From: an uncultured Acidobacteriota bacterium
GTDB taxonomy: Bacteria > Acidobacteriota > Thermoanaerobaculia > Multivoradales > JAHEKO01
DNA length: 64,000 nucleotides
Reading direction: 5' to 3'
Assembly: GCA_963713825.1 (NCBI GenBank)
Contig: CAVQNG010000005.1
Coordinates: 448,001-512,000 of the forward strand
The notes under the pieces were generated by a model. That model was not told where the DNA came from. It saw only the letters and a list, made by a program, of their open reading frames with translations, and did not search any database. This document shows positions 19,065 to 56,815 of this stretch, one piece after another (positions within the stretch are counted from its first letter, which is position 1; every line of letters starts with the position of its first letter). Made by a program: the position numbers and the translations under genes.

Positions 19065-19078
19065 TACTCTTTTGGGTA
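19065..19078. promoter_or_regulatory. Putative CsoR-family operator upstream of fadL copy 1
   Basis: TACTCTTTTGGGTA, near match to TACCC-N4-GGGTA. Confidence 0.4.
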
Positions 19079-19163
19079 GGTAGCGTGATTGGATTGTCAG
19101 TGGAAACAAAGAGGCCCCTCTCCGTAGAAAGGGGCCTGTACTCGATTCGTGGCTAGCGGACGA

Positions 19164-19463
19164 TCAACCGTAACGATTCAGGAGGCTCAGGACCTCCGAG
19201 ACTTCCTCTCGAACTTCGGGTGTGTCGCAGGCGTGGCCGGCCAGCCGGCGGGAGACAGCACAGGAGATCTGGTCGCTGAAGGCCTTGTTGAGCGCCCCGC
19301 GGGCCGCAGCCAGCTGCTGGGCGATCTTCTCGCAGTCTTCGTCGTCAGAGATCATCTTCTGGATGCCGCGAAGCTGACCCTCGACCCGTGCCAGTCGGGC
19401 CAGTAGGCGCTTCTTGTCCTCGATCGGCACGACCGCTTTCTTGATCGGTGCTACAGAAGCCAT
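19164..19463 (-). CDS. CsoR/RcnR-family repressor, probably persulfide-sensing (CstR-like)
   Basis: RLARVEGQLRGIQKM..DCEKIAQQLAAARGAL; extra Cys and no canonical metal-binding His; sulfurtransferase context. Confidence 0.85.
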   Translation of the reverse strand: MASVAPIKKAVVPIEDKKRLLARLARVEGQLRGIQKMISDDEDCEKIAQQLAAARGALNKAFSDQISCAVSRRLAGHACDTPEVREEVSEVLSLLNRYG

Positions 19464-19495
19464 GGTGTTCCTTCCTGGCGCGCAAAAAGAGAGAA

Positions 19496-20074
19496 TCAAA
19501 TAAAGAGATTCGTTCGGGACCTGAGGGACTCACCCAGGAACGCGGCCACGCCAGCGGGCTCGAGACCGTCCATGAGCTCCTCGTCCGCGATCCCCATCAC
19601 ATCCTTGGACATCTCGCAGGCCAGCATCTTCACACCCATCTCTCTGGCCATTTCGATCATTTCCTCGAGCGAGGAAACGTTGTTGTCCTTCATCATCTGG
19701 CGCAGCATCTTGGCGCCGACACCGAAGTAGTTCATCTTGGAGACGGGCAGTTGCGTGGAATTGCTCGGGCTCATGACCGACATCATCTTCTCGAACAGGC
19801 CCTTGCCAGCCAGGTTGCTGTCCTTCTTGAGAACACTCAAGCCCCAGAAGGTGAAGAACATGCTGACTTCCTGGCCCAGGGCGGCGGCGCCCGTGGCGAT
19901 GACGAAAGCAGCCAGGACGCGGTCCAGGTCGCCGGAGAAGACGATCAGGGCGACCATGTCCTCAGGCTGTGATTCCTCGAGGCTCTGTACACGCTGCTCG
20001 ACGGCGGATAGCCGCTCCAGCAGCTCGTTCACGTCGACTTTGCCGCTTGGGGTCGTGACATCACTTACCGACAT
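19496..20074 (-). CDS. DsrE2-type (DsrE/DsrF/DrsH-like) sulfurtransferase
   Basis: VFSGDLDR, MFFTFWGL, LACEMSKDVMG motifs. Confidence 0.9.
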   Translation of the reverse strand: MSVSDVTTPSGKVDVNELLERLSAVEQRVQSLEESQPEDMVALIVFSGDLDRVLAAFVIATGAAALGQEVSMFFTFWGLSVLKKDSNLAGKGLFEKMMSVMSPSNSTQLPVSKMNYFGVGAKMLRQMMKDNNVSSLEEMIEMAREMGVKMLACEMSKDVMGIADEELMDGLEPAGVAAFLGESLRSRTNLFI

Positions 20075-20086
20075 CGTGGTGCTCCT

Positions 20087-20341
20087 TTAGCTGGTCTTCT
20101 GGATGAAGTGGAGGAAAAGCTCGGTACCGTCTTCTTCGACGGTCTCCTGGCCCAGAAGCTCGACGTTCTTGCCGATCTTGGCCCAGCCCTGAAAGTCCTT
20201 GATGGAGCCGCGGTCTGTGCTGATGATCCTGAGGACCTGTCCCTCAGTCAGCTCGCCGATTTTCTTGCGGGCCTTGACCACGGGCATGGGGCAGTTGAGG
20301 CCTTTGGTGTCGAGAGTCTCGTCGTAGTGGACTTCATTCAT
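20087..20341 (-). CDS. tusA: TusA-family sulfur carrier
   Basis: LDTKGLNCPMP motif, 84 aa. Confidence 0.9.
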   Translation of the reverse strand: MNEVHYDETLDTKGLNCPMPVVKARKKIGELTEGQVLRIISTDRGSIKDFQGWAKIGKNVELLGQETVEEDGTELFLHFIQKTS

Positions 20342-20424
20342 GATTCGCGTCCTCTTCTGCCGCTGATGCGGCTGCCGAATCCAAGGTAGATGTGCTTCCC
20401 TGTAATCACAAGTAAGGTCCGTTG

Positions 20425-20454
20425 AATCTAGGATACCCCTGGTGGTATTGTCAA
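20425..20454 (-). promoter_or_regulatory. Sigma-70 promoter for tusA-dsrE-csoR with CsoR-type operator between -35 and -10
   Basis: Minus strand TTGACA-18 nt-TAGATT; spacer contains ATACCACCAGGGGTAT, a G/C-tract palindrome of the CsoR/CstR type. Confidence 0.75.
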
Positions 20455-20550: not shown

Positions 20551-21783
20551 ATGACGTCAGCCGATTCCTCAGCCATGGAGTGGCAGCCAGGGCAGCTGCT
20601 GGAGCACCTGGAGCGGGAAGACGACCTGTTCATCTTCGACGTTCGGAACGAAGACGAATACGAGAGTTGGAAGATCGAGGGGAAGAAGAAGATCCCCATG
20701 GTCAACGTGCCTTACTACGAGATGCTCGAAGTCGATGAGCACGACGACGTGGTCGACACCTTCGTCGACTATCTCGAAGGTGCATGGATGGACAAGCTGC
20801 CCAAGGAGACGCCGATTCTGGCCGTCTGCGCCAAGGGTGACACCTCGGAGTACGTTGCCGAGGCCATGCGACGACTGGGTTTCGATGCTTTCAACATGGC
20901 GGGTGGCACCAAGGCCTGGGGCGACTACTACCACGTGCGCGCCATCGAGGAGACGGAGCATCGCAGTGTGTACCAGATCAGTCGTCCGGCGCGGGGTTGC
21001 CTGAGCTATCTCATCGGCAGTGCTGGTAAGGCCGCGCTCATCGACCCGCTGCGGCACGAACAGCACTATCTCGACCTGGCAGCCGAGAAAGGTCTCGAGA
21101 TCGTTCTGGTTCTGGATACCCACGGGCATGCGGATCACATCAGTGGCGGTCCGGCGATCGCCGAGCATTCTGGAGCGCCTTACTACCTGCACCCCTACGA
21201 TGGGATTCACCCCATCGACGTCCTGCCGGCCAAGATCCCGTACCTGTTCGTCCGTGACGAGCAGGAATTCAAGGTGGGGGAGTGCACGATCCACACGTTT
21301 CACATTCCAGGTCATACGCTGGGTAACCTGGCGTACCTGTTGGACGGCAAGTATCTGTTCACCGGTGACAGCATCTTCATCAAGTCCATCGCACGACCCG
21401 ATCTAGGCGGCCACGGCGACACCTGGGCGCCGATCCACTATCAGTCGCTGCGTAGGTTGCTGGAGCTGTCGGAGGATGTGATCGTCTTGCCGGCCCACTT
21501 CGCCACGCTCGCCGAGGAGAATGGACAGGGACTGTTTGCGGATTCTCTCGGCGAGCTGAAGAAGGTCAATGACGGCCTGCTGATGGTCCAGAAGGGCGAG
21601 GAGGCGTTCGTCAGCTACATCCTCGCGAGTCTGCCCAAGTTCCCGGAGGAATACATCGAGATCAAGCGCGTTAACGCGGGCCTGGTCGAAGTGGGTGAGG
21701 CAAAGGCCTCGGAGCTCGAGCTGGGCAAGAACATCTGCGCGCTCTCAGAAGCCTACGAAGACGACGAAGCGGCGGCCGGCTGA
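20551..21783 (+). CDS. Rhodanese / metallo-beta-lactamase-fold fusion (persulfide dioxygenase-like)
   Basis: N-terminal rhodanese DVRNEDEY..VCAKGDTS; THGHADHISG, PGHT, FTGD..ARPDL MBL motifs. Confidence 0.88.
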   Translation: MTSADSSAMEWQPGQLLEHLEREDDLFIFDVRNEDEYESWKIEGKKKIPMVNVPYYEMLEVDEHDDVVDTFVDYLEGAWMDKLPKETPILAVCAKGDTSEYVAEAMRRLGFDAFNMAGGTKAWGDYYHVRAIEETEHRSVYQISRPARGCLSYLIGSAGKAALIDPLRHEQHYLDLAAEKGLEIVLVLDTHGHADHISGGPAIAEHSGAPYYLHPYDGIHPIDVLPAKIPYLFVRDEQEFKVGECTIHTFHIPGHTLGNLAYLLDGKYLFTGDSIFIKSIARPDLGGHGDTWAPIHYQSLRRLLELSEDVIVLPAHFATLAEENGQGLFADSLGELKKVNDGLLMVQKGEEAFVSYILASLPKFPEEYIEIKRVNAGLVEVGEAKASELELGKNICALSEAYEDDEAAAG

Positions 21784-22327: not shown

Positions 22328-23647
22328 TCATTTCCTCGCCCAGGCCCACGAAATACCGAAAGCGGCCGTCCACTGACTGTGCTCGACTGTCGTTCCCGGA
22401 CCGAAGGGATTCACCTGGGGATTGGGGTTGTTGTTGGTCTGTGATGTGTTGAAGGCGTGCTCGATCCCGAACTCATAGGAGATGCTGCCCGCCAGGTAGC
22501 TGAAGCCGAAGGAGAGGTGGTCTTCGACGGTGGCGGGAAACAGCGGGTTGAGGGTGTCATCGGGAACCGGATTCTCACCGTAGTTGTAGCCGGCCCTCAG
22601 GGTCAGCGTGTCGTTCACCCGGTAGTCGGCGCCGAAAGCGTAGACCCATTGATCCTTCCAGTTGAAGACGAAGGGCAGGACCACCTCATCGAATGGCGGC
22701 GGTAGGGGTGCGTCTGGGTTCTTGCCCGTTACCGTGATGGTGTCAATGGCGTCATCCCAGTAGTTCTTCTTGATATCGAGCGCCAGTATCCATCGGTCGT
22801 TGGGTCGCAGGGCGAAGCCGACGCCGGCTTGAGCCGCGAACGTGAATCCGTCCACCTCAGCTTCGTACCCGACCTTCTGTCCGATGAACGGGAATCCGTT
22901 GTAGTTGACCGCCAGGTCACCTCCGGTGAAATCGCTCTTGGTCTCGGTCTGGTAAATGGCGCCGACCGAGAACTTTGGCGTCGCTCGCCACATCCATCCC
23001 AGTCGGAAGTTGTATTGCAGACCGCCAGCCGTACCCATTTCCACTCCGGGAAAGCTGAAGGCGGGGTTGTCGGTGTTGAAGAACGAGGTTTCGGGCCAGA
23101 ACGCGAACGCGACATCCGCATAACCGACATTGGCTGCAAGTCCAATCGACATGTCTTCGTTGATGGCGTACGAGACGGTTGGAACGAGTGTTCCGAAGCG
23201 GACCTCGCTGTCCGTCTTGTCCTGGGTGCCGAAGAAGGTGTTCGTGTTCTTGAACGTGGCACCCATTCCTCCCTGGGCGACCATTCCGATCCCCCAGGAC
23301 CATGGCGAATCTTTGCCGGCACGCACATAGGCGAAGGAGGGCAGCGGGAAGTAGCTGCTCTCGGAGTCGATAGGCGACGGATTGACCATGTTCTCGAAGG
23401 TCAGCGATGGAACCAATACTGCGAGGTTGGCCGTAAAGTGGTTTCCCTGGAGTTGAGAGATGCCGGCCGGGTTGAAGTTGATCGCCAGGCTCCGGTCCGA
23501 GATGGCGAGATTGGCGCCACCTCGACCCAGGGTCTCTGCTCCATAGGCGGTGAGGTACATGCCGTTGGTGGCGGGCAGTTGAGCCGGGGCCACCAGAACC
23601 ATGACCATAAATGCCAGTGGCCAGGCGCGAATTATTCGGGTGTACAT
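22328..23647 (-). CDS. OmpP1/FadL-family outer-membrane transporter (copy 2)
   Basis: ATNGMYLTAYG..GRGGA..NPAG hatch motif, LRAGYNYGENPV. Confidence 0.88.
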   Translation of the reverse strand: MYTRIIRAWPLAFMVMVLVAPAQLPATNGMYLTAYGAETLGRGGANLAISDRSLAINFNPAGISQLQGNHFTANLAVLVPSLTFENMVNPSPIDSESSYFPLPSFAYVRAGKDSPWSWGIGMVAQGGMGATFKNTNTFFGTQDKTDSEVRFGTLVPTVSYAINEDMSIGLAANVGYADVAFAFWPETSFFNTDNPAFSFPGVEMGTAGGLQYNFRLGWMWRATPKFSVGAIYQTETKSDFTGGDLAVNYNGFPFIGQKVGYEAEVDGFTFAAQAGVGFALRPNDRWILALDIKKNYWDDAIDTITVTGKNPDAPLPPPFDEVVLPFVFNWKDQWVYAFGADYRVNDTLTLRAGYNYGENPVPDDTLNPLFPATVEDHLSFGFSYLAGSISYEFGIEHAFNTSQTNNNPNPQVNPFGPGTTVEHSQWTAAFGISWAWARK

Positions 23648-23709
23648 GATTGTCTCCTGAAAAATCCGGTGCTCGATGAGTTGGGAAGGTCCCAATCAGG
23701 GCATCGGGA

Positions 23710-25975: not shown

Positions 25976-26017
25976 GAAAGTTCCTTTCTCTAGAATCGTT
26001 GCTCGCTCATATTGAGT

Positions 26018-26033
26018 AGCATTGAGCGTGCCA
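26018..26033 (-). promoter_or_regulatory. Sigma-54 (-24/-12) promoter of the sqr-tusE-dsrE-fadL-cytc operon
   Basis: Minus strand TGGCACGCTCAATGCT (GG-N10-GC), about 40 nt upstream of the sqr ATG. Confidence 0.8.
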
Positions 26034-26103
26034 ACATTGTAACTACTGGTTTCAAAGGGGTTAAGGTGATACCACTCGGATCAGCGGAGTGCTACGAGAC
26101 CTA

Positions 26104-26132
26104 ACGTTTCACTGAAACGTTTCATTTGAAAC
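26104..26132. promoter_or_regulatory. Tandem palindromic upstream activator sites for the sigma-54 activator
   Basis: ACGTTTCA-C-TGAAACGT and GTTTCA-TT-TGAAAC, 70-100 nt upstream of the sigma-54 promoter. Confidence 0.65.
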
Positions 26133-26252
26133 TTTATGTTGCAACGCAAAGTTCCGTGATGCCCCACAGGAGCGCCGAGAAAAGGGTGGCACCTCGAGAG
26201 AGCGTCGAGGCAGTGAGGCTATGTGGCGGGAAAAAAACGGGTGGCACCCGGG

Positions 26253-27674: not shown

Positions 27675-27702
27675 GGGTTCATCCTCAGAGCAGGCACGGC
27701 TT

Positions 27703-28215
27703 TCACTCCCACCAGATATCCAGCTCTTCCGGTGGATTGAGCTTTTCGGGCTCGAAGCCCAGACGGCGCAGCTCGGTGATAACGGCTTCTTCCACCTCGG
27801 GTATCGCCGCCATGACCGGCTCGCTGAGCGTAGTCTGTAGCTCGACCTGGGAGGGGATGACTCCGACCAGAAGTACGTCGTCCGGCGCCTCGCCGATGAA
27901 ATCACCAGCCAGCAGCGCGTCTCGCAAGCTGGGATCGTGGGGTGACAGGCGCAAAGCGGGAAGGATCTTGGCGATATCCTGTTGCCGGTAGAGACGCACC
28001 TCGCCCGGCTCTCCCTTGGCTTTCACGGCATCCAGAACGATCACAGCGTCGAACTGGGCCATGTAGTTGACGAACTCCGGCCCTGGCGTGCCGAGATCGA
28101 GAAGCTCGATCTCCGACGGGAAGATGTAGTTGGCCTTAAGGAATTGGAGGACGTACGCACCGAAGGCGTCGTCCCCCATGATGATGCTGCCCAATGAGAT
28201 GATTCCAACTTTCAT
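27703..28215 (-). CDS. hybD: [NiFe]-hydrogenase maturation endopeptidase (HybD/HyaD family)
   Basis: LGSIIMGDDAFG, LDLGT, VLDAV..GEPG, SPH motifs. Confidence 0.88.
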   Translation of the reverse strand: MKVGIISLGSIIMGDDAFGAYVLQFLKANYIFPSEIELLDLGTPGPEFVNYMAQFDAVIVLDAVKAKGEPGEVRLYRQQDIAKILPALRLSPHDPSLRDALLAGDFIGEAPDDVLLVGVIPSQVELQTTLSEPVMAAIPEVEEAVITELRRLGFEPEKLNPPEELDIWWE

Positions 28216-36064: not shown

Positions 36065-37762
36065 TTACAGTGCTTTCACTTTCACCAGTTCCTTGCCCTC
36101 GGCATCATGGGTATGAATCGCACAAGCCAGGCACGGGTCGAACGAGTGAATGGTGCGCACAACCTCGAGAGGTCTCTCGGGATCGGCCACCGGGTTGCCC
36201 ATGAGTGATGCCTCGTAGGGCCCCATCCTTCCCTTGGCGTCTCTCGGCCCGGCGTTCCAGGTCGAGGGCACGACACACTGGTAGTTCTCGATGACTCCGT
36301 CGCGAGCGACAACCCAGTGCGACAGCGTGCCGCGCGGAGCTTCGTGGAAGCCGAACCCTTTCTGCACGCCCTTGAACTCGGGCTTCCGCCAGATCTCCAC
36401 GTCTCCGCTGGCGATGTTGTTGGCCAGCAGACCCCAGTGCTTCAGGGCCAGATCCGACAGCACGACGCACCGAATGCACCGCGCCGCGTGCCGTCCGAGG
36501 GTCGAATGCAAGACCTTCGGGGTCAGCTTGACGCCCGCCATGTTGCCAGCCTGCTCTAGGACGTAGGTGCCGTACTTGGCAAAGAGCTCGTTGCCCGAGG
36601 CCAAGCCCATCAGCACCTGAGCCAGCGGACCCACCTGCATCGGCTCGTCCTGGAACCGAGGCGACTTCACCCAGGAGTAGTCCCCGTCGTCTTCCCATTC
36701 GCTGTACTTGGGAACGGTCTCCTCCTCCCAGGGGTGACGCTGCCAGTCACCGTCGTACCAGGAGTGAGCAATCCCTTCCTCGACGTTGTCGCGGAAGTAC
36801 TCGTCATTGAAGCTCGAGATCGGCTTGTACGAACCGAGATCAGCATTCATGATCGTGCCGCCCGGCAGGTCGAACTCTGTCCCCGCTTCGTCGAGCGGCA
36901 GATCTGGCACAGCCATGTAGTTCGTCACGCCCGCCCCGTATCCCAGCCACTCCGGATACATGGAGCCGATGGCGATGACGTCCGGTAGATAGACGTTCTT
37001 CACAAAGTCCTGAACCTCTGTCAGCAGCACCTTTGCCTGATACAGCTTCTTCATGTTCAACGTGGCTTCGTTGTCCATGTTGATGGCGTTGGCGACGCCT
37101 CCGACAGCCAGGTTCTGAATGTTGGGGGTCTTCGACCCCAGAATGGTCACCACCTGATTGGCCTTGCGCTGATACTCGAGGGCCTGCAGGTAGTGGCTTG
37201 CCGCCAGCAGGTTGACCTCGGGTGGCAGATGCATGGCTGGGTGACCCCAGTAGCCGTTGGCGAAGATCCCCAACTGCCCGCTGTCCACCACACCTTGCAG
37301 CCTCGCCTTGACCGCCGCGAGCTGCTTGGTGCTATTTCCAGGCCACTCCGAAATGCTCTCCGCTAGCTTGCTCGCCGCGGCCGGATCGGCTTTCAGAGCC
37401 GACACGATGTCGACCCAGTCGAGCGCCGACAGGTGGTAGAAGTGCACGATGTGATCGTGCAGCCCGTGGGCCGCCAAGATCACGTTGCGAATGTACTGGG
37501 CGTTGATGGGTACGGTCATACCCACCGCATTCTCCACCGCGCGCACCGAAGTGATGGCGTGCACGGTGGTGCACACCCCGCAAATGCGCTGGGTGAAGAG
37601 CCAGGCGTCCCGCGGGTCGCGGCCCTGGAGAATGACTTCGATCCCTCGCCACATCTGGCCCGAGGACCAGGAATTCTGCACCTTGCCGCCATCGACTTCG
37701 ACGTCGACGCGCAGGTGGCCCTCGATGCGAGTGATCGGGTCGACTGTGATCCGTCTACTCAT
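36065..37762 (-). CDS. hybC: [NiFe]-hydrogenase large subunit, group 1 (Hyb-type)
   Basis: DPITRIEGH, QRICGVCTTVH (L1), SFDPCLACAIH (L2) plus cleavable tail. Confidence 0.95.
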   Translation of the reverse strand: MSRRITVDPITRIEGHLRVDVEVDGGKVQNSWSSGQMWRGIEVILQGRDPRDAWLFTQRICGVCTTVHAITSVRAVENAVGMTVPINAQYIRNVILAAHGLHDHIVHFYHLSALDWVDIVSALKADPAAASKLAESISEWPGNSTKQLAAVKARLQGVVDSGQLGIFANGYWGHPAMHLPPEVNLLAASHYLQALEYQRKANQVVTILGSKTPNIQNLAVGGVANAINMDNEATLNMKKLYQAKVLLTEVQDFVKNVYLPDVIAIGSMYPEWLGYGAGVTNYMAVPDLPLDEAGTEFDLPGGTIMNADLGSYKPISSFNDEYFRDNVEEGIAHSWYDGDWQRHPWEEETVPKYSEWEDDGDYSWVKSPRFQDEPMQVGPLAQVLMGLASGNELFAKYGTYVLEQAGNMAGVKLTPKVLHSTLGRHAARCIRCVVLSDLALKHWGLLANNIASGDVEIWRKPEFKGVQKGFGFHEAPRGTLSHWVVARDGVIENYQCVVPSTWNAGPRDAKGRMGPYEASLMGNPVADPERPLEVVRTIHSFDPCLACAIHTHDAEGKELVKVKAL

Positions 37763-37774
37763 TCCAATGTCCTC

Positions 37775-38971
37775 CTAATGGGCTTCCGCTGTGGTGGATC
37801 GGCCAGCCAGGATCGGAAAGACCGTGACCAGTGCCACGTACAGCACGATTTCGATTGCAACGATTCCGATCGTGACGAACATCTCCGGCACGGTCGGGAA
37901 GTACGAGAAATTCTCGCCCGGCATGAAGGCCACCAGATACGTGTCGAACCGGTACATGGTTCCGGCGAGGACCAGCATCATGGCAGCGCGAAACAGATAG
38001 CCGAGATTCTGTCGTTTCTGGGCGTTCATCAGCATCACCGCAGGAACGGCGAAGCAGATGATCTCGAGCCAGAACATCAGAGAGAAGACGTTGAACTGAA
38101 ACATCAGGCCGAGCCGTCCGCGCAGTACCAGTTCCACCAGGCGCAGAGCCAGGTAGACCCAGATGATGTAGGCGGCTACCTTGCCGATGTTTGCCAACAT
38201 CGAGGTGTGGGACGGGCGCCCGAAGTAGCGACTCGCCAGCGCCGATTCCATCACCACCACCGCATAGCCCATGGCGATGCAGGAGATCAGGAATAGCAAC
38301 GGCACGAGCGGCGTGTTCCACAGGCCGTGCAGCCGTGGCCCCGACAGCAGCATCAGGCTGCCCAGGGACGACTGATGCATGGTCGGCAGCAGCACTCCCA
38401 GCGCGATGATCCAGATCAGCAGTTTGTTGACAATGCCGTAGGCTTTCTTCGAGAAGTTGGCCAGCCCCTCCTTGGGACTGTCCTTCCACTTCTCAAAAAA
38501 CGCCGGCGACAGCTCGATCCATAGAACGATGACGTAGGCCATCACACACAGCGCTACTTCGAGCAGGGCGGAGTTCCAGTTGTACTTGCCCATGTCGGGG
38601 AAGCCACCCAGCGGGATGCGCCAGATGAACCACGGCCGGCCCACATCGATGGCGATGGCCAGCCCCGCCATGGAGTAACCGAGGGCGCTGGTCAAGATCG
38701 CCGGACGAACCAGCGGATGGTACTTGCCCTTGTTGAAGATATAGACCAACAGGGCCATGGCGAAGCCGCCGCAACCCAGGGCCGTACCGGTGACGACGTC
38801 GAAGGCGATCCAGAGACCCCACGGATAACCGTCGGTGAGTCCTGTCGACCTGCCAAGACCGACGGCGAAGCGCCAGAGGATGAGGACAACACCGAGGATG
38901 CCGAGCCACAAGATCCACTTGTTGACTTTGCCGAAGGCCGGGCCACCTAGAGGTTGTGCTTGCTCGCTCAT
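37775..38971 (-). CDS. hybB: Hydrogenase-2 NrfD-type membrane subunit
   Basis: YPWGLWIAFDV, YHPLVRPA, PTMHQSSLG, MYRFDTY. Confidence 0.93.
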   Translation of the reverse strand: MSEQAQPLGGPAFGKVNKWILWLGILGVVLILWRFAVGLGRSTGLTDGYPWGLWIAFDVVTGTALGCGGFAMALLVYIFNKGKYHPLVRPAILTSALGYSMAGLAIAIDVGRPWFIWRIPLGGFPDMGKYNWNSALLEVALCVMAYVIVLWIELSPAFFEKWKDSPKEGLANFSKKAYGIVNKLLIWIIALGVLLPTMHQSSLGSLMLLSGPRLHGLWNTPLVPLLFLISCIAMGYAVVVMESALASRYFGRPSHTSMLANIGKVAAYIIWVYLALRLVELVLRGRLGLMFQFNVFSLMFWLEIICFAVPAVMLMNAQKRQNLGYLFRAAMMLVLAGTMYRFDTYLVAFMPGENFSYFPTVPEMFVTIGIVAIEIVLYVALVTVFPILAGRSTTAEAH

Positions 38972-39861
38972 GCCTCACCAGCCTCTTCTGCATCGCCATC
39001 CTTGCGACGATTGCGCCACATCACGACGCCCAGCATTGCGTAGAGCGCTGCTGGTGCGATGAAGCCCTGGTACACGCCGTGTTGGATGGTCTGCTGCATC
39101 TCGGGCACCGGCTCTTCGTCATCGAACCGGAAACCGAGCTTCTCGAACGGCACATGCGACAGGTAGAGCACCTGCGTGCCGCCCAGATCCTTCTCGCCGT
39201 AGATCTTGGGCTCATAGCGATCGGGGTACTCGGCGAGGCGCCGCTTGGCTTCTGCCAGAAGCTCATCGTAGGTACCGGCGATAACCGCCTCACGTGGGCA
39301 GACCTCGCAACATGCGGGCTCCCACTGTTTGTCCCCTGCTCGCTGCCGGCAGTACTCGCACTTGACGATGTAGGGGTTGAGGCTGGACCACTCGAACTGC
39401 GGAACGTTGAAGGGGCATGCCATCTGGCAATAGCGGCAGCCGATGCAGCGGTCCTTGTCCCAGGTGATCACACCGTACTTCTCTTTGCGGAAGGAGCCGA
39501 TCATGCAAGCCCCGACGCAGGCCGGGTCCACACACTGCATGCACTGGCGCTTGACGTAGGAACGCCGATCACCTTCCGAGTAGAGCTTGATGATGTTCTT
39601 GGTGTATTCGTTGAGATCGGTGGGAGCGTCGTAGTTCTCCATCCCTGGGGTCGTGGTGTCCGCCGGCAAGTCGTTGGCCTCTTTGCAGGCCCTCACGCAG
39701 GCTTTGCACCCGATGCACAGGGTGGTGTCGTAGAGCATGCCGCGAGCATCTTCCGGGACAACCTTGCGCTCGCGGGCAGCCTTGACAGGCGACGCGCTCG
39801 CCACCGCTGCGGCACTGGCGGTGGCCATGCCCTTGAGCAGGGAGCGTCGATCGAATGCCAT
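38968..39861 (-). CDS. hybA: Hydrogenase-2 ferredoxin subunit
   Basis: DRRSLLK Tat signal, CIGCKAC and further FeS motifs, GGTQVLYL, C-terminal TM. Confidence 0.92.
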   Translation of the reverse strand: MAFDRRSLLKGMATASAAAVASASPVKAARERKVVPEDARGMLYDTTLCIGCKACVRACKEANDLPADTTTPGMENYDAPTDLNEYTKNIIKLYSEGDRRSYVKRQCMQCVDPACVGACMIGSFRKEKYGVITWDKDRCIGCRYCQMACPFNVPQFEWSSLNPYIVKCEYCRQRAGDKQWEPACCEVCPREAVIAGTYDELLAEAKRRLAEYPDRYEPKIYGEKDLGGTQVLYLSHVPFEKLGFRFDDEEPVPEMQQTIQHGVYQGFIAPAALYAMLGVVMWRNRRKDGDAEEAGEA

Positions 39862-39863
39862 GG

Positions 39864-40991
39864 CTAGCTCTCCTCTTCTTCGGGCTCGTCACCGAGCTTC
39901 TTCGAGGCGGCGTAGCCGGCACCCAGCAGGCCTCCCGCCACGAGTCCGGCCACACCCGTTGCCACCGCTCCGACCTTGCCTTGTGGGGCGCCGATCGGCG
40001 GGTAGGTGTCGGGGTTGGTCGGACGCTCGATGTCCACCGTGTCGGTAATCGATGTCTGCCAGAGGACCTTCTGCTCCGTGCAGCCGACGCAGGGGTGTCC
40101 CAGCCCGATGGGCCAGGCATCGACGACCTCGCCAAACGCCTGAACCGAGCAGTTGGCGTGGGTCACAGGTCCTTTGCAGCCGAGCTTGTACAGGCAGTAG
40201 CCCTGGCGATGGTTCTCGTCGCCGTAGGCCTCTGCAAACCGCCCGGCGTCGAAGTGCGCCCGCCGCGGGCAGTGCTCGTGGATCGTCCGGCCGTAGGCCC
40301 ACTTGGGCCGAGCCAGCTCATCGAGCGCCGGAAGCGTGCCGAAGGTGGCGTACTGCAGAGCCGTTCCGAGGAAGTTGTAGGGGTTGGCCGGGCAACCGGG
40401 AATGGTCACGACGGTCTTGCCCTCGAGAATCATCGGTGCGCCGGTGGCGCCGGTCGGATTCGGTTCGGCTGACGGGATGCCGCCCCAGGATGCGCAAGAG
40501 CCAATCGCGATAATGGCCCCTGCCATCTCTGCAGCCTCGTTCAGGATGTCGACGGCCGTGCGGCCACCGATCATGCAGTAGATCCCATCGTCCTTCTCCG
40601 GGATTGCACCCTCGACCACCAGAATGAACTTGCCCTTGTGCGCCTCCATGGCGGCCATTCGGACCTCTTCGGCCAGATGACCCGAGGGCACCATGAGGGC
40701 CTCGTGGTAGTCCAGCGAGATCAGATCCAGGATCAGCTCGTCGAGGCCCGGGAAGCGCGTACGCAACAGGGTCTCTGTACAGCCGGTGCACTCCTGGAAC
40801 GACAACCAGATTACCGACGGCTTCTGACCTGCAATGGCGGCCTCCGCCATCTTCACACCGGCTCCTGCCGGCAATCCGACGGCCGCGGCCGCAATGCTGC
40901 AGATCTTCAAGAAGTCTCGGCGGTCCACGCCTCTGCCCAGCATCTCCTCGCTGGACACCCCTTTCACGACTCTTGGCAGCAACATATCCAC
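39864..40991 (-). CDS. hybO: [NiFe]-hydrogenase small subunit
   Basis: RRDFLK Tat signal, QECTGCTE, GSCASWGG, PGCP, HEHCPRR, CLYKLGCKGP, C-terminal TM. Confidence 0.95.
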   Translation of the reverse strand: MDMLLPRVVKGVSSEEMLGRGVDRRDFLKICSIAAAAVGLPAGAGVKMAEAAIAGQKPSVIWLSFQECTGCTETLLRTRFPGLDELILDLISLDYHEALMVPSGHLAEEVRMAAMEAHKGKFILVVEGAIPEKDDGIYCMIGGRTAVDILNEAAEMAGAIIAIGSCASWGGIPSAEPNPTGATGAPMILEGKTVVTIPGCPANPYNFLGTALQYATFGTLPALDELARPKWAYGRTIHEHCPRRAHFDAGRFAEAYGDENHRQGYCLYKLGCKGPVTHANCSVQAFGEVVDAWPIGLGHPCVGCTEQKVLWQTSITDTVDIERPTNPDTYPPIGAPQGKVGAVATGVAGLVAGGLLGAGYAASKKLGDEPEEEES

Positions 40992-41074: not shown

Positions 41075-41093
41075 TACCCTCAGGGGTAGTCAA
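41075..41093 (-). promoter_or_regulatory. CsoR-type operator abutting a TTGACT -35 for the hyb operon
   Basis: Minus strand TTGAC-TACCCCTGAGGGTA, same layout as at the tusA promoter. Confidence 0.6.
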
Positions 41094-41197
41094 TTCATCG
41101 CATGCGGGTAGCCCTCTCGACTGTCCTATTGGGTAGGTTCCGAGGCGGCTGGTCTGTGAGACAATGCCGCGCAGACCGGCCTCGACTGTGATGGACC

Positions 41198-41545
41198 ATG
41201 CACGAGTACTCCATAGTGAGCGCCCTCCTGGCCCGTGTCGAAGCCGAAGCCCGGGCGCATGGTGCCGAGGCAGTGCACCGCATCCGGGTGCAGATCGGTG
41301 AGCTCTCGGGAGTGGAACCGGAGCTCCTCGAATCAGCCTACGAGCTGGTTCGTGAGCGCACGATCTGCGAGAAGGCCGAGCTCGAGATCGTGCCCGTCGA
41401 AGCCCGGTGGGCTTGTAGCTCTTGCAAGAGCACGATCCCCAAGGGAGCGGTTCTGCGCTGCTCGGTCTGCGACCTACCGGCCCAGCTGGCCGAGGGGGAT
41501 GAGATACTGCTGGAACGGGTGGAAATGGAGGTTCCTGATGTGTGA
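41198..41545 (+). CDS. hypA: Hydrogenase nickel metallochaperone
   Basis: MHE start, CSSC..CSVC. Confidence 0.95.
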   Translation: MHEYSIVSALLARVEAEARAHGAEAVHRIRVQIGELSGVEPELLESAYELVRERTICEKAELEIVPVEARWACSSCKSTIPKGAVLRCSVCDLPAQLAEGDEILLERVEMEVPDV

Positions 41546-42251
41546 GACCTGTGGTTGTGGTGATTCCGATCTCGTTCCCGTCGAGGTTCACGAGGCCATC
41601 CTGTCGGAGAACGAGCGGGGTGCGCGCCACAATCGCGAGCACTTCGTCGAGCAACAGGTGCTGGCGATCAACCTGATGGGCTCGCCTGGATCGGGCAAGA
41701 CCGCCGTTCTGGAAGCGACTGCCAAGGCCATGGAGGGCAGCTGGCGCTTGAGCGCCATGAGCGGCGATCTGGCGACCGACAACGACGCCAACCGCCTCGA
41801 AGCGGCGGGGATCCCCTCCCAATCGATTACGACCGGCTCGGCCTGTCATCTGGACGCCAAAATGGTGCACCAGGGGCTTCACCAGCTGCCCTGGCGGGAG
41901 ACCGATCTCCTCTTCATCGAGAACGTGGGCAATCTGGTGTGTCCAGCGGTTTATGACCTGGGCCAGGCCTTCAATGTCGTGGCGTTGGCGGTGACCGAAG
42001 GCGAGGACAAGCCCCTCAAGTACCCGGTGATGTTCCGGACAGCGGACCTGGTGTTGCTGACCAAGGTGGACCTGTTGCCTCACCTGCCGCAGATCGATGT
42101 AGCGACCATCGAGGACGGCCTGGCTCGCACCATGCCGGAGCCGAATGTCATCCACGTTTCGGCGATCACCGGCGAAGGCATGGACCGCTGGATCGAGTGG
42201 CTCGAGGCAAAACGGACCGCCGCACTCACGGAGGTCGCTGCCAAGGCATGA
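41538..42251 (+). CDS. hypB: Hydrogenase nickel incorporation GTPase
   Basis: MCETCGC, GSPGSGKT, CHLDA, ENVGNLVCP, KPLKYP. Confidence 0.95.
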   Translation: MCETCGCGDSDLVPVEVHEAILSENERGARHNREHFVEQQVLAINLMGSPGSGKTAVLEATAKAMEGSWRLSAMSGDLATDNDANRLEAAGIPSQSITTGSACHLDAKMVHQGLHQLPWRETDLLFIENVGNLVCPAVYDLGQAFNVVALAVTEGEDKPLKYPVMFRTADLVLLTKVDLLPHLPQIDVATIEDGLARTMPEPNVIHVSAITGEGMDRWIEWLEAKRTAALTEVAAKA

Positions 42252-42994
42252 CCGAGCCCCTGATCATCCTGGCCGCCACCGCGGCGTCGATCGGCCTGGT
42301 CCACACCCTGATCGGGCCAGACCACTACGTGCCGTTCATCGCCTTGGCGGGCGCCCGTAATTGGTCTCTATCCAAGACTTTAGGCATCACGGCGGTGTGT
42401 GGCGTCGGCCATGTGCTCGGCTCCGTGGTGCTCGGTGGTCTGGGGATCCTCCTCGGCCTGGCTCTTGGGGGCTTGGAGTGGTTCGAGGGCTTTCGAGGCG
42501 AGATCGCAGGTTGGCTGCTGCTGGGATTCGGACTGGCTTACATGGCCTGGGGACTTCGTCAGGCGTATCGCAACCGGCCTCACACCCACTGGCACGGTCA
42601 TGCGGACGGGTCTCTGCACGAGCACACCCACACCCACCAAGAGGAGCACGCCCACGTTCACGCGGCGGTCCAGGAAGCGCCTCGAGATGAACAGGCGAAG
42701 GCGACAACCGGTAAGCGCATTACACCCTGGGTCCTTTTCCTCATCTTCATCTTCGGCCCGTGCGAGGCCCTGATTCCGGTACTCATGTACCCAGCGGCCG
42801 ATGGCAGTTGGTGGGGTGTTGCCCTGGTCGTGATGGTCTTCGGCGTCACGACGGTCGCCACCATGCTGGTGACGGTCGCTGTCGGCTACCTGGGAATCTC
42901 TCGTCTACCTCTGGGCCGACTCGAACGCTTCTCCCACGCCCTCGCCGGCCTGGCCCTCGTCGTCTGCGGCCTCGCAATCCAACTCGGCTTCTGA
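42248..42994 (+). CDS. His-rich nickel permease-like membrane protein (UreH/NiCoT/TauE-like)
   Basis: HTLIGPDHY, GVGH, HTHWHGHADGSLHEHTHTH loop, GPCE. Confidence 0.75.
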   Translation: MTEPLIILAATAASIGLVHTLIGPDHYVPFIALAGARNWSLSKTLGITAVCGVGHVLGSVVLGGLGILLGLALGGLEWFEGFRGEIAGWLLLGFGLAYMAWGLRQAYRNRPHTHWHGHADGSLHEHTHTHQEEHAHVHAAVQEAPRDEQAKATTGKRITPWVLFLIFIFGPCEALIPVLMYPAADGSWWGVALVVMVFGVTTVATMLVTVAVGYLGISRLPLGRLERFSHALAGLALVVCGLAIQLGF

Positions 42995-43047: not shown

Positions 43048-43354
43048 GAGTAGAACCCCGTATCCCCTGCGGTCCAGTCCTTTCGGTCTACCTGGGGCAC
43101 TACCCCTTCGGGTAGGCTGTTCCCACCTAGGCGAGTGTGTTCTTTACCACCTCACAATGGTATTTATCAGATGCCTCGACAAAGGCAGAGCCGGTGAAAT
43201 TCCGGGCGCAGGCCACGGGTCTTCTCTTTTTCCCATAACTGCCTCCAGTGGAAGTGTGTCCAGACGTCCCGTCTGGAAGGAAGGAAAACTCGGAAAACTC
43301 GGGGACACTATTCAAGTTACCGAGCCCGCCCCGAAAAAAGGGTGGCACCTTTGG

Positions 43355-53472: not shown

Positions 53473-53560
53473 AGGGCATAAGGGCTTAGGGGCGTAGGGG
53501 TAGGGCAGTGAGGCCATGGGGCATTGGGGCAGTGGGGCATTGAGGCAGTGAGGGATTGGG
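53473..53560. repeat. Degenerate 8-mer tandem tract (GGGGCAGT / GGGCATTG / GGGCTTAG)
   Basis: Visible tandem units; related tracts near 22-60, 10313-10380, 49060-49100, 51635-51668 and 56345-56510. Confidence 0.7.
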
Positions 53561-53650: not shown

Positions 53651-55471
53651 ATGACGAACATCCTGGGGATTTCGGCGTTCTACCATGACTCCGCGGCCTG
53701 CCTCGTGCAGGACGGAGAGCTCGTGGCCGCTGCCCAGGAGGAGCGCTTCACCCGCAAGAAGCACGACCACCGATTTCCCGATTCAGCAGTGCGGTACTGC
53801 CTGCAGGAGGCTGGCATCACGGCCGATCAACTGGATGCCGTGGCCTTCTACGACAAGCCCTGGCTGAAGTTCGAGCGGTTGCTGGAGACCTACCTCTCCT
53901 TTGCACCGGCGGGCCTGCCTTCGTTCCTGAAGGCGATGCCGCTGTGGCTGAAGCAGAAGCTCTGGATGGGCGAGCTGATCCAGAAACAGGTCGGCTTCGA
54001 GGGCGACTTGCTCTACCCCGAGCACCATCAATCCCACGCTGCCTCGGCCTTCTATCCCTCGCCGTATCAGCGGGCAGCGATCTTGACCATCGATGGTGTC
54101 GGCGAATGGGCCACCGCATCCTGGGGTGTAGGCCATGACCACAATGTAGACATCCGCTGCGAGCTGATGTTTCCTCACAGCCTCGGATTGCTCTATTCGG
54201 CCTTCACCTACTACACCGGTTTCCGAGTCAACTCGGGTGAGTACAAAGTGATGGGCCTCGCCCCGTACGGCGAGCCGAAGTACGTCGACCTGATCCTCGA
54301 CAATGTGATGGACCTGCGCGAGGACGGCTCCTTCTGGCTGGACATGGACTACTTCAACTACTGCCAGGGTCTGACGATGACCTCGGAGAAGTTCCATCGG
54401 CTTTTCGGGGGCCCGCCGCGGGCTCCGGAGTCGGAGCTGACGCAGAAGGAGATGGACCTGGCCCGCTCGGTCCAGGAGGTCACTGAAGAAGCCATGTTGC
54501 GCATGGCCCGGCATGTGAAGAAAGAGACCGGCGAGAAGTACCTCTGTCTGGCCGGCGGCTGTGCCCTCAACTGCGTGGCCAACGGCAAGATCCTGCGCTC
54601 CGGCATCTTCGAGGACATCTTTATCCAGCCGGCTGCTGGAGATGCCGGCGGAGCGCTCGGAGCGGCCCTCTTCACCTGGCACCAGGTGATGCAGAAACCT
54701 CGAACGGCAGCCGGAGATCGTGACTCCCAGAAGGGTTCCTACTTGGGGCCGGCGTTCGAGTCCAAGACGATCGAGACGTGGCTCGAACGGGAGGAGATCC
54801 CCTACGAGCGACATGAGCCCGAGGCAATCCCAGGCCTGGTCGCCGACATCATCGACGACGAGAAGGTCGTTGGCTTCTTCGCGGGCCGAATGGAATTCGG
54901 TCCCCGAGCCCTGGGTGGGCGCAGCATTATCGGCGATGCCCGCTCGACCAAGATGCAGTCGATCATGAACCTGAAGATCAAGTACCGGGAGTCCTTCCGG
55001 CCTTTCGCGCCCTCCTGTCTCGTCGAGGATGTCTCGGAGCTCTTCGAGCTCGACCGTCCCTCGCCCTACATGCTCCTCGTGGCGGACGTCCAGAAGAGTC
55101 GGCGCAAGGCGATGACCGAGGAGCAGAAGAGCTTCTTCGGCATCGAGAAGCTGAATGTGCCCCGCTCGGACATACCGGCGATCACCCATATCGACTACTC
55201 TGCCCGTGTGCAATCGGTCGATGGTGTCAACAACCGGCCCTACTACGACACGATTCGAGCTTTCAAGGAGAAGACCGGCTACGGGGTGGTCGTCAACACG
55301 TCGTTCAATGTGCGCGGGGAGCCCATCGTCTGCACGCCGCAGGATGCGTTTCTCTGCTTTATGCGCACTGAGATGGACGTGCTGGTGCTCGAGAACCTCG
55401 TCCTCTACAAGACACAGCAAAAGGAGCTCGAAGGCGACGAGGACTGGCGGGAGCAGTATGACCTGGACTGA
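53651..55471 (+). CDS. O-carbamoyltransferase (NodU/CmcH/SxtI family)
   Basis: YHDSAA..QEERFTRKKH, EHHQSHAAS, EYKVMGLAPYG, EFGPRALG, RESFRPFAP, NTSFNVRGEP. Confidence 0.95.
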   Translation: MTNILGISAFYHDSAACLVQDGELVAAAQEERFTRKKHDHRFPDSAVRYCLQEAGITADQLDAVAFYDKPWLKFERLLETYLSFAPAGLPSFLKAMPLWLKQKLWMGELIQKQVGFEGDLLYPEHHQSHAASAFYPSPYQRAAILTIDGVGEWATASWGVGHDHNVDIRCELMFPHSLGLLYSAFTYYTGFRVNSGEYKVMGLAPYGEPKYVDLILDNVMDLREDGSFWLDMDYFNYCQGLTMTSEKFHRLFGGPPRAPESELTQKEMDLARSVQEVTEEAMLRMARHVKKETGEKYLCLAGGCALNCVANGKILRSGIFEDIFIQPAAGDAGGALGAALFTWHQVMQKPRTAAGDRDSQKGSYLGPAFESKTIETWLEREEIPYERHEPEAIPGLVADIIDDEKVVGFFAGRMEFGPRALGGRSIIGDARSTKMQSIMNLKIKYRESFRPFAPSCLVEDVSELFELDRPSPYMLLVADVQKSRRKAMTEEQKSFFGIEKLNVPRSDIPAITHIDYSARVQSVDGVNNRPYYDTIRAFKEKTGYGVVVNTSFNVRGEPIVCTPQDAFLCFMRTEMDVLVLENLVLYKTQQKELEGDEDWREQYDLD

Positions 55472-55483
55472 TCGTTGGGAATG

Positions 55484-55526
55484 CGGTGACAGGCACCTCA
55501 TTTCTGAAATGAGGTGCCTGTCACCG
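55484..55526. repeat. Long palindrome CGGTGACAGGCACCTCATTTC-T-GAAATGAGGTGCCTGTCACCG (REP-doublet-like)
   Basis: 21-bp arms read directly from the sequence. Confidence 0.8.
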
Positions 55527-55543
55527 AAAAAAGGAAGAGGCTG

Positions 55544-55945
55544 ATGAGCGAGCACGCAGCCAAGACCGTCAAAGAGCTCCGGAAGTTCGGCTTCGCATTC
55601 ACGGGCGGTCTGACGCTTCTCGGTAGCCTGCTCCTCTGGCGGGGCAAGGCGCCGGGTCCCTATGTCCTGGGAGCGGCCGCTGTGGTCCTAACCCTGGCTC
55701 TGCTGGCACCTGCCGCGCTTCGACCGCTGGAAAAGACGCTCGCCACGATCTTCCGGTGGGTCACGGCTGCCCTGACTTACGTGATCCTGGTTGTGACCTA
55801 CTATCTGGTGGTGACCCCGATGGGGATCATCATGCGACTTCTGGGCAAGGATCCCCTGCATTTGAAGCGAGAGCCGAATCGACCATCCTTCTGGGTATCG
55901 GTAGAGGAGGATGGGCCGGCGTCGCGGCCGGACAAGCCGTACTAG
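55544..55945 (+). CDS. SxtJ-family membrane protein
   Basis: KELRKFG, YYLVVTPMG..GKDPL..SFW; follows the carbamoyltransferase. Confidence 0.85.
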   Translation: MSEHAAKTVKELRKFGFAFTGGLTLLGSLLLWRGKAPGPYVLGAAAVVLTLALLAPAALRPLEKTLATIFRWVTAALTYVILVVTYYLVVTPMGIIMRLLGKDPLHLKREPNRPSFWVSVEEDGPASRPDKPY

Positions 55946-56152
55946 AGGGTCGAGGCGGCCGTCATGCTTCCGGCCGATCTTTGAGGGCTTGGGGGTTGAA
56001 GAGGCCGTCGCTTGCTCCGGCCGGGTCTTTGGGGCGATGGGGCAGAGAAGTACTGAAGCGACCGGCGTCTCTGCCGGCCGGGGTGTGTGGGGGAGGGGAA
56101 GGTTCTTCTATAATCGAGATCTGATTAGTGGCTTTGAAGGGATAGGCAGCTC

Positions 56153-56311
56153 ATGGCATCGAATTCCAAGATCGGCACCATCTGGGGCTTTCTCAAGACC
56201 CGCAAGAAGTGGTGGCTGACGCCCATCATTCTCACTCTGGTCCTGCTGGCGGCCCTGATCGTGCTGACCGAGTCCTCGGCGGTCGCGCCGTTCATCTACG
56301 CGTTGTTTTAG
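56153..56311 (+). CDS. DUF5989 / SxtK-like 52-aa peptide, absent from the ORF track
   Basis: MASNSKIGTIWGFLKTRKKWWLTPII..SAVAPFIYALF. Confidence 0.88.
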   Translation: MASNSKIGTIWGFLKTRKKWWLTPIILTLVLLAALIVLTESSAVAPFIYALF

Positions 56312-56753
56312 GCGCGGGCTCGTACCTCGCCCACGCAGGGTAATGAGGGCTTGGGGTTGAGGAGTCCGGCGTTCCTTCGGGCAATCCTTGAGGCAGTGGG
56401 GCACTGAGGGCTTGGGGGTTGAGGCGCTCGGCGAGTGCGCCGAGCGGTCTTTGGGGGCTTGGGGGAAGACGGATTCAATACCCCTCGGCCCTTACGCCCC
56501 TAAGCCCATCTGAATCGGCCGCCCCTACAGAGTAGACGCGTTTGAAGCGGCCGGACCTGTGCCGGCCGGGGAGCCCCAAGCCCCAGAACCCAAGCCCCCA
56601 TTGCCTCAAAGGTCGGCCGGAGCAAGCGACGGACGATTCAACCCCCAAGCCCTCAAAGAATCGGCCTACACGAAGTGTGGCCGCCTCAACCCCCAGGCCC
56701 TCAAAGACCAGCCGAAGGTACGCCGGCTGGCTCAACCCTCTGTTCACATTCCC

Positions 56754-56815
56754 TACCCTCTAGGGTAGCTGCCAAACCCACCCGACTGTGTGCCCCTCGA
56801 CTACCCCCGGGGGTA
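56754..56815. promoter_or_regulatory. Two CsoR-type operator-like palindromes upstream of the decaheme operon
   Basis: TACCCTCTAGGGTA (56754) and perfect TACCCCCGGGGGTA (56802), the latter preceded by TCGAC. Confidence 0.6.

Follow-up and report, generated by a model that had tools for sequence, protein, structure and literature searches.

A stretch of 64,000 nucleotides from an uncultured Acidobacteriota bacterium of the class Thermoanaerobaculia (assembly GCA_963713825.1, contig CAVQNG010000005.1, positions 448,001 to 512,000), hereafter called the window, encodes a CsoR-family repressor in a tusA-dsrE-csoR operon, and the promoter of this operon carries a 14-bp palindrome close to TACCC-N4-GGGTA that is assigned, with high confidence, as the operator of the repressor. 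Palindromes of the same geometry, likewise joined to a T[TC]GAC element, lie upstream of an uptake hydrogenase operon, of nickel insertion genes and of a decaheme cytochrome operon. The most economical reading, to which we give somewhat better than even chances, is that one repressor governs one regulon spanning tusA, hyb, hyp and the decaheme genes. An initial annotation had proposed such a regulon and, built on it, a sulfur-triggered respiratory programme from H2 to elemental sulfur (S0); its observation of recurring sites is confirmed, and its regulon idea is partly supported by the analysis described here.

The CsoR-family repressor and the tusA promoter

The locus consists of the following features.

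19164..19463, minus strand: CsoR-family (PF02583) repressor gene P0001, 99 amino acids (Pfam E=1e-20; alignment, structure matches, profile search)
19496..20074, minus strand: DsrE2-like sulfur carrier gene, in one operon with the repressor (Pfam DrsE_2, 2.9e-53; NCBIfam DsrE2 below cutoff)
20087..20341, minus strand: TusA sulfurtransferase gene, first in the tusA-dsrE-csoR operon (Pfam TusA, 1.7e-17)
20434..20454, minus strand: tusA promoter-operator, reading TTGACA, A, TACCACCAGGGGTA and then TAGATT as the -10 (14-bp site 20434-20447)
20551..21783, plus strand: persulfide-dioxygenase-like fusion of rhodanese and metallo-beta-lactamase (MBL), divergent from tusA (Pfam Rhodanese, Lactamase_B)

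In a scan with the sigma-70 consensus, the 20434 site was found between the TTGACA and TAGATT hexamers of a minus-strand promoter-like site (20454..20425), that is, between -35 and -10 of tusA-dsrE-csoR as first annotated, and this single site also overlaps the promoter region of the divergent rhodanese-MBL gene. The whole cluster, tusA-dsrE-csoR with rhodanese-MBL, is also present in the Acidobacteriota loci L002, L003, L004, and L007. The promoter-operator is conserved in L002, L004, and L007, where TTGACA abuts the operator just as in the window, and occurs with an offset in L003. Acidobacteriota tusA promoters read TTGACA, directly followed by ATAC-N8-GTAT and then by a TAG(A/G)TT or TATA-type -10, a pattern matched by 20454..20425 of the window. 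Comparison of the orthologous tusA-dsrE-csoR promoters showed the site to be retained in the window, L002, L003, L004, and L007.

The wider sample comprised 80 loci encoding relatives of the repressor, with up to 10 kb on each side, the closest of which belong to Acidobacteriota/Thermoanaerobaculia metagenome-assembled genomes (MAGs) with 56-62% identity. In 45 of the 80, the 260 bp 5' of the repressor match include a site with two or fewer mismatches, against 235 of 4181 (5.6%) 280-bp windows elsewhere in the same loci, and the 44 distinct upstream sites, all from non-Acidobacteriota loci, yield the consensus ATAC(C/T)C-N4-GGGGTAT, in which the base outside TAC/GTA is A or T in 95% of the operators. 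Genes adjacent to sites in these loci (56 proteins scanned) encode the repressor itself, persulfide-dioxygenase/rhodanese fusions, TauE, rhodaneses, and YgaP-like proteins, and further sulfite-oxidase-like proteins, DsrE, and HlyD-type efflux components. Because homologues carry the same 14-bp geometry upstream, beside sulfur-detoxification genes, the 20434 site is taken to be the operator of the 19164-19463 protein, and autoregulation by this repressor is very probable. The premise of the initial annotation that CsoR/CstR repressors bind G/C-tract palindromes of this kind agrees with the TAC-N8-GTA version found beside the homologues. For the Thermus thermophilus repressor TTHA1953, affinity falls 10- to 15-fold when the spacing of the repeats is changed by one base in either direction (PMC10318464), and therefore the shared 14-bp geometry is informative; the cst operator of Streptococcus mitis, at 15 bp, is one base longer (PMC8643695, accessible text).

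Two operators spaced 37-39 bp apart were observed at L016 725/762, L044 9916/9953, L069 3076/3113, and L042 4670/4709, and in such dual-operator promoters TTGA(C) directly follows the distal operator. Paired sites in the window are 47-48 bp apart, and both spacings are near half-integral helical turns.

The designation of the 19164-19463 protein as a CsoR-family repressor holds, with 74.3 bits against a cutoff of 22.8 for PF02583 (Trns_repr_metal, DUF156), and a profile search of all six-frame open reading frames (ORFs) found it to be the sole PF02583 gene of the window, with no second CsoR-family gene. Its profile matches to solved structures range from E=2e-15 (FrmR, the best) to 3.5e-5 and include InrS and CsoR, and the G/C-tract pseudo-palindrome with TAC/GTA in its own promoter is likewise that of the CsoR/RcnR superfamily. 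The accessible text of PMC8643695 gives the ligand sets of the family as x-C-H-C for Cu, H-C-H-H or H-C-H-C for Ni/Co, P-C-H for FrmR, and x-C-x-C for CstR, and describes several large CsoR-family clusters as entirely uncharacterised. In the window protein Cys44 and Cys68, both invariant in an alignment of 34 sequences (A1), are 24 residues apart (C-X23-C). Cys44 aligns with family position X, and Cys68 with Ser59 of FrmR, which is Y-1; position Y is Ala69 and Z is Arg73, so that W-X-Y-Z reads x-C-A-R. The x-C-H-C set of Cu(I)-CsoR is absent, as are copA and copZ from the window and the loci examined. The N-terminus, MASVAPIKK, lacks both His and Cys, and His occupies neither Y nor Z, so that the ligand sets of RcnR, InrS, and NreA are absent (NCBIfam RcnR score 46.6 against a cutoff of 138); instead of the Pro2, Cys35, and His60 of FrmR, residue 2 and position Y are both Ala (NCBIfam FrmR score 52 against 133).

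The neighbourhood is that of a CstR, with TusA, DsrE2-like and rhodanese-MBL genes beside the repressor and sulfur-detoxification genes also in the homologue loci, and this gene context suggests persulfide sensing by the 19164-19463 protein. The earlier description of the protein as persulfide-sensing agrees with this context but not with the position of the second cysteine. That cysteine pair off the canonical x-C-x-C positions, the best NCBIfam similarities to FrmR and RcnR (far below cutoffs), and the label "FrmR family" that one source gives to relatives would suit a real regulon whose signal is thiol oxidation in general, a metal or an aldehyde; such an effector is nevertheless unlikely, given that the Cu, Ni/Co, and FrmR signatures all fail (no His at Y, no N-terminal His or Cys, no Pro2) and that the neighbours are TusA, DsrE, rhodanese, persulfide-dioxygenase-like and TauE genes, with no copA, rcnA or frmA among the neighbours in the homologue loci, which come from Acidobacteriota and several proteobacterial groups.

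Comparison with known systems, made here against the accessible text of PMC8643695 and PMC10318464, places the protein near two of them. With CstR and the cst operon of Staphylococcus, Enterococcus, and Streptococcus it shares the PF02583 fold, two conserved cysteines without a metal-ligand His, a gene position beside TusA, rhodanese, and persulfide-dioxygenase-type genes, and a promoter with a TAC...GTA inverted repeat around a G/C tract, two operators being present in some homologue promoters (PMC8643695). It differs in its second cysteine, which is at Y-1 and 24 residues on, whereas that of CstR is at Z and 29 residues on (C31/C60; PMC8643695); in its operator, a 14-bp TAC-N8-GTA in place of the 15-bp core of S. 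mitis (PMC8643695); in its hosts, which are Acidobacteriota and Proteobacteria; and in the proposed hydrogenase and outer-membrane cytochrome targets, which the accessible parts of PMC8643695 and PMC10318464 do not describe for CstR. TTHA1953, the Sox repressor of T. thermophilus, is also a CsoR-family protein, whose DNA binding needs reduced cysteines, and the genes that it represses, at a distance from its own, are those of an energy-conserving sulfur pathway with cytochromes among them (PMC10318464); it may serve as a precedent for thiol-based control of an energy-yielding sulfur pathway with cytochromes by this family. Unlike the protein of the window, TTHA1953 has its cysteines 29 residues apart (C39/C68) and binds TACNNTACNNNNGTANNGTA, which lacks a G/C tract, in contrast to the single TAC/GTA pair with G/C tracts found here (PMC10318464), and hydrogenase and decaheme genes take the place of sox genes as proposed targets. 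Cu(I)-CsoR, RcnR/InrS, and FrmR all bind G/C-tract pseudo-palindromes (PMC10318464) and have the same domain, FrmR, InrS, and CsoR being the best structure matches, but the x-C-A-R pattern and the lack of copA/copZ, rcnA or frmA neighbours set the window protein apart from them. The system would work like CstR or TTHA1953, as a thiol-modulated CsoR-family repressor of sulfur genes, but it lacks the canonical CstR cysteine signature, and its operator geometry is its own.

A common promoter design at hydrogenase and decaheme operons

Beyond the tusA locus, the sites and genes concerned are these.

36065..40991 (hybO start 40985/40991), minus strand: hybO-hybA-hybB-hybC, [NiFe] hydrogenase-2-type uptake operon (Pfam, NCBIfam)
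41075..41093, minus strand: hybO promoter-operator, TTGAC joined directly to TACCCCTGAGGGTA (41075-41088, exact; 90 nt 5' of the hybO ATG at 40985)
41117..41135, plus strand: hypA-side element, TCGAC abutting TGTCCTATTGGGTA (two-mismatch site 41122-41135; 62 nt 5' of hypA)
41198..42994, plus strand: hypA, hypB, and a membrane protein gene (hydrogenase nickel insertion), divergent from hybO (Pfam HypA, CobW/HypB)
48229 to 43355, minus strand: hypF-C-D-E (Pfam/NCBIfam)
56754..56767, no strand assigned: exact site TACCCTCTAGGGTA, the distal one of a pair, 48 bp 5' of 56802
56797..56815, plus strand: decaheme-operon promoter-operator, TCGAC joined directly to TACCCCCGGGGGTA (56802-56815, exact; 330 nt 5' of the ATG)
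57146-58081, plus strand: GSU2203-family decaheme cytochrome c gene (NCBIfam 345.5 against a cutoff of 325; Pfam; translation)
58094-59842, plus strand: gene of a GSU2204-family CXXCH-containing outer-membrane-type protein (NCBIfam 452.8 against a cutoff of 350)

The hyb operon matches the NCBIfam models for hydrogenase 2 small subunit, HybA, cytochrome b subunit, and large subunit. Chance expectation for the motif was taken from 100 dinucleotide-preserving shuffles of the window. The exact form TACCCNNNNGGGTA (TACCC-N4-GGGTA) occurs four times, at 41075, 43101, 56754, and 56802, where a mean of 0.02 is expected and none of the 100 shuffles reaches four; with one mismatch allowed there are six sites, 19065 and 20434 being added, against 0.69 expected, and again no shuffle reaches this number. 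The class with up to two mismatches (23 against 13.7 expected) is barely enriched, and the 41122 site, which belongs to it, cannot for this reason stand on sequence alone and draws its weight from context only. All sites that had been listed in the initial annotation were found at their coordinates, although 41122 qualifies with two mismatches only and the "partial" at 34853, on the kinase side, was dropped from the count: it has three mismatches and a single half-site, and falls between genes only on the assumption that the ATG near 34675 is the kinase start. The motif might have proved equally frequent in coding DNA, an objection which the same annotation had anticipated; all six sites with at most one mismatch are intergenic, although intergenic DNA makes up 13.5% of the window by our own gene map. 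The bare frame TAC-N8-GTA is present ten times, six of these being the candidate sites and the other four lying in coding sequence.

The principal new argument comes from the element next to the palindrome. The strict composite T[TC]GAC-N0-2-TAC-N8-GTA occurs three times, at 20434-20454 (-), 41075-41093 (-), and 56797-56815 (+), where 0.005 is expected per window (200 first-order Markov simulations, maximum 1), and a relaxed form, with 0.67 expected, adds 41117-41135 (+) alone to make four, in agreement with the earlier remark that four sites abut TTGAC or TCGAC. All four composites are intergenic and oriented to the adjacent gene, namely tusA, hybO, hypA, and the decaheme operon, and a side-by-side count finds 22 of 30 positions identical between the hybO and decaheme elements. 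Because of this common T[TC]GAC-plus-palindrome design, the hybO, hypA, and decaheme promoters would share their regulator with tusA.

As to the individual elements, the 56802 site was observed to be nested in a longer palindrome (56793-56824) of the form CCCCTC-N3-site-N3-GAGGGG, with 18-nt arms that are 83% complementary. Control of hybO, hypA or the decaheme operon by sigma-54 was considered and set aside, a GG-N10-GC scan having given a weak 8/11 match at 56973, 3' of the decaheme sites, and nothing convincing for hybO and hypA; its one good element (26033, -) is that of the SQR operon described below.

Two further sites have no composite element, and the gene that may belong to one of them is listed with them.

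17523..18791, minus strand: FadL/TodX-family outer-membrane channel gene, candidate regulon member (Pfam Toluene_X, 2.5e-22)
19065..19078, no strand assigned: site TACTCTTTTGGGTA with one mismatch, 3' of the csoR terminator (19112-19137) and 274 bp 5' of the FadL-like gene
43101..43114, no strand assigned: orphan exact site TACCCCTTCGGGTA, located where two genes converge (360-bp gap)

TAC-N8-GTA is found upstream of cluster-adjacent FadL-like genes in three genomes (window 19065, L007 8664/8670, L002 5576), and in a MAFFT alignment of the three upstream regions, which align poorly, the window site does not stand opposite those of L007 and L002; what these regions appear to have in common is the presence of a site, not an alignable block. 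FadL/TodX channels recur in sulfur-relay clusters, at 17523-18791 (-) and 22328-23695 (-) in the window, at 5729-7102 in L002, and at ~8814-10096 in L007; that they might import hydrophobic sulfur species is an idea only. The 43101 site is flanked, as had been stated before, by convergent genes, 42197-42994 (+) and hypE 43355-44425 (-).

REPs are usually found between convergent genes. The placement of the 43101 site, a REP-associated-transposase-like gene (34970-36061) and a repeat family in the same window, and the small hairpin that CCCC-TTCG-GGG could form would fit an account in which the sites away from csoR are not operators but RNA hairpins, palindromes that arose by chance, or copies of a repeat of mobile or REP-like type, yet this account is very improbable in view of an enrichment far above chance. 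The sites share only the 10 core bases and T[TC]GAC and, with N4 spacers and flanks that vary between sites, do not represent copies of a single element; the actual repeat family of the window, TGAGGGCTTGGGGGTTGAGG with six copies, is unrelated in sequence, and an origin of the motif from it or another mobile repeat, with shared flanks lacking at the motif sites, was rejected. An RNA element was likewise rejected: no part of the window matches Rfam at the gathering score, 42990-43360 has no match even at E<=1, 55946-57150 has two sub-threshold matches only, and the fold of 43115-43240, downstream of the 43101 site, is no more stable than that of shuffles (z = -0.03).

One regulator or two

Several observations weigh against a single regulon. 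The 56 proteins scanned beside sites in the 80 homologue loci include neither a hydrogenase nor a cytochrome, and the regulon there is limited to sulfur detoxification. A sigma-70 consensus scan of 40900-43400 and 55900-57200 gave no -10 for the hyb, hyp, and decaheme elements, the 43101 site has no visible target between its convergent genes, and neither a CsoR-type site nor a half-site is present at the two other sulfur operons of the window, a Psr/Phs-like (polysulfide/thiosulfate-reductase-like) operon (10573-15999) and an SQR-dsrC-dsrE operon. On the side of the protein, the canonical CstR signature with Cys at X and Z is absent, the second cysteine aligning at Y-1 and not at Z as in CstRs, which makes the proposed sensing chemistry less certain.

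To the same side belongs the base that flanks the palindrome. A/T is present outside TAC/GTA on both sides only at 20434, and on one side at 41075 and 56802, while 19065, 41122, 43101, and 56754 have C/G. A weight matrix was built from the 44 upstream operators of non-Acidobacteriota homologue loci, whose training minimum is 16.6; on this scale 20434 scores 21.4, and 41075 (16.2) and 56802 (15.4) fall just below the training range. The scores of 19065 (5.9), 56754 (5.2), and 43101 (-0.1) are far below it because C/G replaces A/T at the outer flank, and 41122 is outside the 30 best scores of the window. The matrix separates 20434, 41075, and 56802 from the rest, a result that is not decisive, and on mononucleotide-shuffled windows scores of 17.5-23 were reached in 3 of 20 runs. 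Sites of the sulfur clusters of Acidobacteriota themselves can have G or C flanks (L004 9006, ...GGGGGTAGGG; L007 8664, CTACCCC...GGGTAGG), which softens the flank objection without removing it.

These observations give substance to a second account, possible though clearly the less probable one, in which the CsoR-like protein acts on its own divergent promoters, and perhaps on FadL, and another protein encoded outside the window acts on the hyb, hyp, decaheme, and orphan sites. Candidates for this second regulator are a paralogous CsoR-family metal sensor, for which nickel would suit hyb and hyp, or an unrelated dimeric factor. Nickel-sensing members of the family exist (PMC8643695, accessible text), and paralogous CsoR-family proteins in one cell of Thermus have separate, non-cross-reacting operators (PMC10318464, accessible text), the latter being a further point against one shared repressor. 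The hyb, hyp, decaheme, and orphan sites are mostly flanked as CTAC...GTAG(G), with the low scores of 19065, 56754, and 43101 as noted; an extension GGGTAGG(T/C), untypical of the homologue-locus operators, recurs at 19065, 41122, and 43101; and the regulon next to the homologues is restricted to sulfur detoxification. However, the tusA, hybO, hypA, and decaheme promoters have the same 14-bp geometry and T[TC]GAC design, the sulfur-cluster sites of Acidobacteriota are G/C-flanked as well (L004 9006, L007 8664), and no second PF02583 gene is present within the 64 kb. The single CsoR regulon of the initial annotation is in this way partly supported by the tusA operator and the shared promoter design, but not by the homologue loci, where hydrogenase and cytochrome genes are lacking beside the sites.

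Under the single regulon, which we continue to prefer, motif and architecture suggest that the repressor may control hyb, hyp, decaheme, and fadL genes, and both the effector and the direction of regulation given here are predictions. Most likely, the repressor with reduced thiols would bind TAC-N8-GTA with its G/C tract (core TACCC-N4-GGGTA), by family analogy as a tetramer or a pair of tetramers; tetramer binding, repression, and thiol chemistry are all drawn from what is known of the family. At the tusA promoter the bound protein would fill the spacer between TTGACA and the -10, shutting RNA polymerase out both from this promoter and from that of the divergent rhodanese-MBL gene. Sulfane sulfur, as persulfide or polysulfide, could then bridge Cys44 and Cys68 of neighbouring subunits and lower the affinity for DNA, and release of the repressor would co-induce the sulfur-relay and detoxification genes, the H2-uptake hydrogenase, the nickel-insertion genes, and the outer-membrane electron conduit.

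A more far-reaching proposal, which is tentative, is that an uncharacterised CsoR branch (C-X23-C, 14-bp ATACCC-N4-GGGTAT), widespread in Proteobacteria and Acidobacteriota, has been recruited here from a local detoxification switch to a master switch, by which sulfane sulfur would turn on H2 uptake, nickel insertion, the decaheme conduit, and a FadL-type channel through which hydrophobic sulfur might pass; H2 oxidation would in this way be coupled to the reduction of extracellular sulfur or metal. The H2-to-S0 respiratory programme of the initial annotation is not evident because the sulfur reductase candidate falls outside the motif set, the Psr/Phs-like and SQR operons having neither site nor half-site, and such a physiology is speculative and ranks below the extended regulon.

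Sulfidic and metal-rich sediments harbour abundant Acidobacteriota of the Thermoanaerobaculia type. The gene content of the window fits the repertoire of such MAGs, for which use of H2, sulfur compounds, and metal oxides has been predicted (PMC8528874); the accessible text of that source makes no regulatory claim of this kind, and among the literature titles and abstract openings searched there was no link between the CsoR family and hydrogenase or outer-membrane cytochromes. Hydrogenase and cytochrome targets would be new for the family. If one thiol sensor does couple sulfane sulfur to hydrogenase and outer-membrane cytochromes, this would be the first such regulatory link in Acidobacteriota, and it would widen the remit of CsoR/CstR-type proteins from detoxification to respiratory programming. 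Independently of the regulon, a large group of homologues is defined by non-canonical cysteine spacing, a 14-bp operator, and a cst-like gene context.

Other sulfur operons and neighbouring features

The Psr/Phs-like molybdopterin oxidoreductase operon (10573-15999, -) has an FeS subunit fused to an NrfD-type membrane subunit and a chaperone gene alongside, and in L004 the same Psr/Phs-like pair (4141-8654) adjoins the tusA-dsrE-csoR cluster. The SQR-like protein (24713-25975, -) scores 601.9 against a cutoff of 525 with the NCBIfam model "type III sulfide quinone reductase, selenoprotein subtype" and is encoded by an ordinary ORF. A sigma-54-type element TGGCACGCTCAATGCT (TGGCAC-N5-ATGCT; 26033, -) lies 45 nt 5' of this gene, repeated GTTTCA/TGAAAC inverted repeats are found further upstream (25976-26252), and a sigma-54 enhancer-binding protein (26253-27905, -) with an unassigned N-terminal domain, which may be of the FisR type, that is, a sulfide-responsive sigma-54 activator, is encoded beside the SQR-dsrC-dsrE operon. 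This control module, the second in the window with a link to sulfur and distinct from the CsoR-type sites, differs from the CsoR system in protein family and promoter type and has no TACCC-N4-GGGTA. The equivalent SQR operon of L003 does carry a CsoR-type site, and therefore rewiring between relatives has taken place.

The repeat family with the core TGAGGGCTTGGGGGTTGAGG has six copies (at most three mismatches; 0 expected) in both orientations in two intergenic regions, 10123-10188 and 55944-56741, the latter flanked by long imperfect inverted repeats, and G-rich repeats also occur at 53480-53560. The family looks like a REP/BIME-type extragenic element unrelated to the TACCC motif. Directly 3' of hybC, the ORF 34970-36061 (-) resembles REP-associated tyrosine transposases (NCBIfam 58.7 against a cutoff of 80; Pfam Y1_Tnp 2.6e-6, HYH motif), and its true start is probably near 35911.

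Among the remaining genes, 31107-32369 (-) encodes a response-regulator receiver fused to a glycine-cleavage H-protein (lipoyl-carrier) domain, without a DNA-binding domain, and adjoins a HAMP histidine kinase gene (33137 to ~34675). A likely toxin-antitoxin pair of PIN-domain and ribbon-helix-helix genes is present at 62444-63096 (-). Finally, a small hydrophobic ORF of 52 amino acids (56154-56312, +), missed by length-based calling, follows carbamoyltransferase and SxtJ-like genes (53651-55945).

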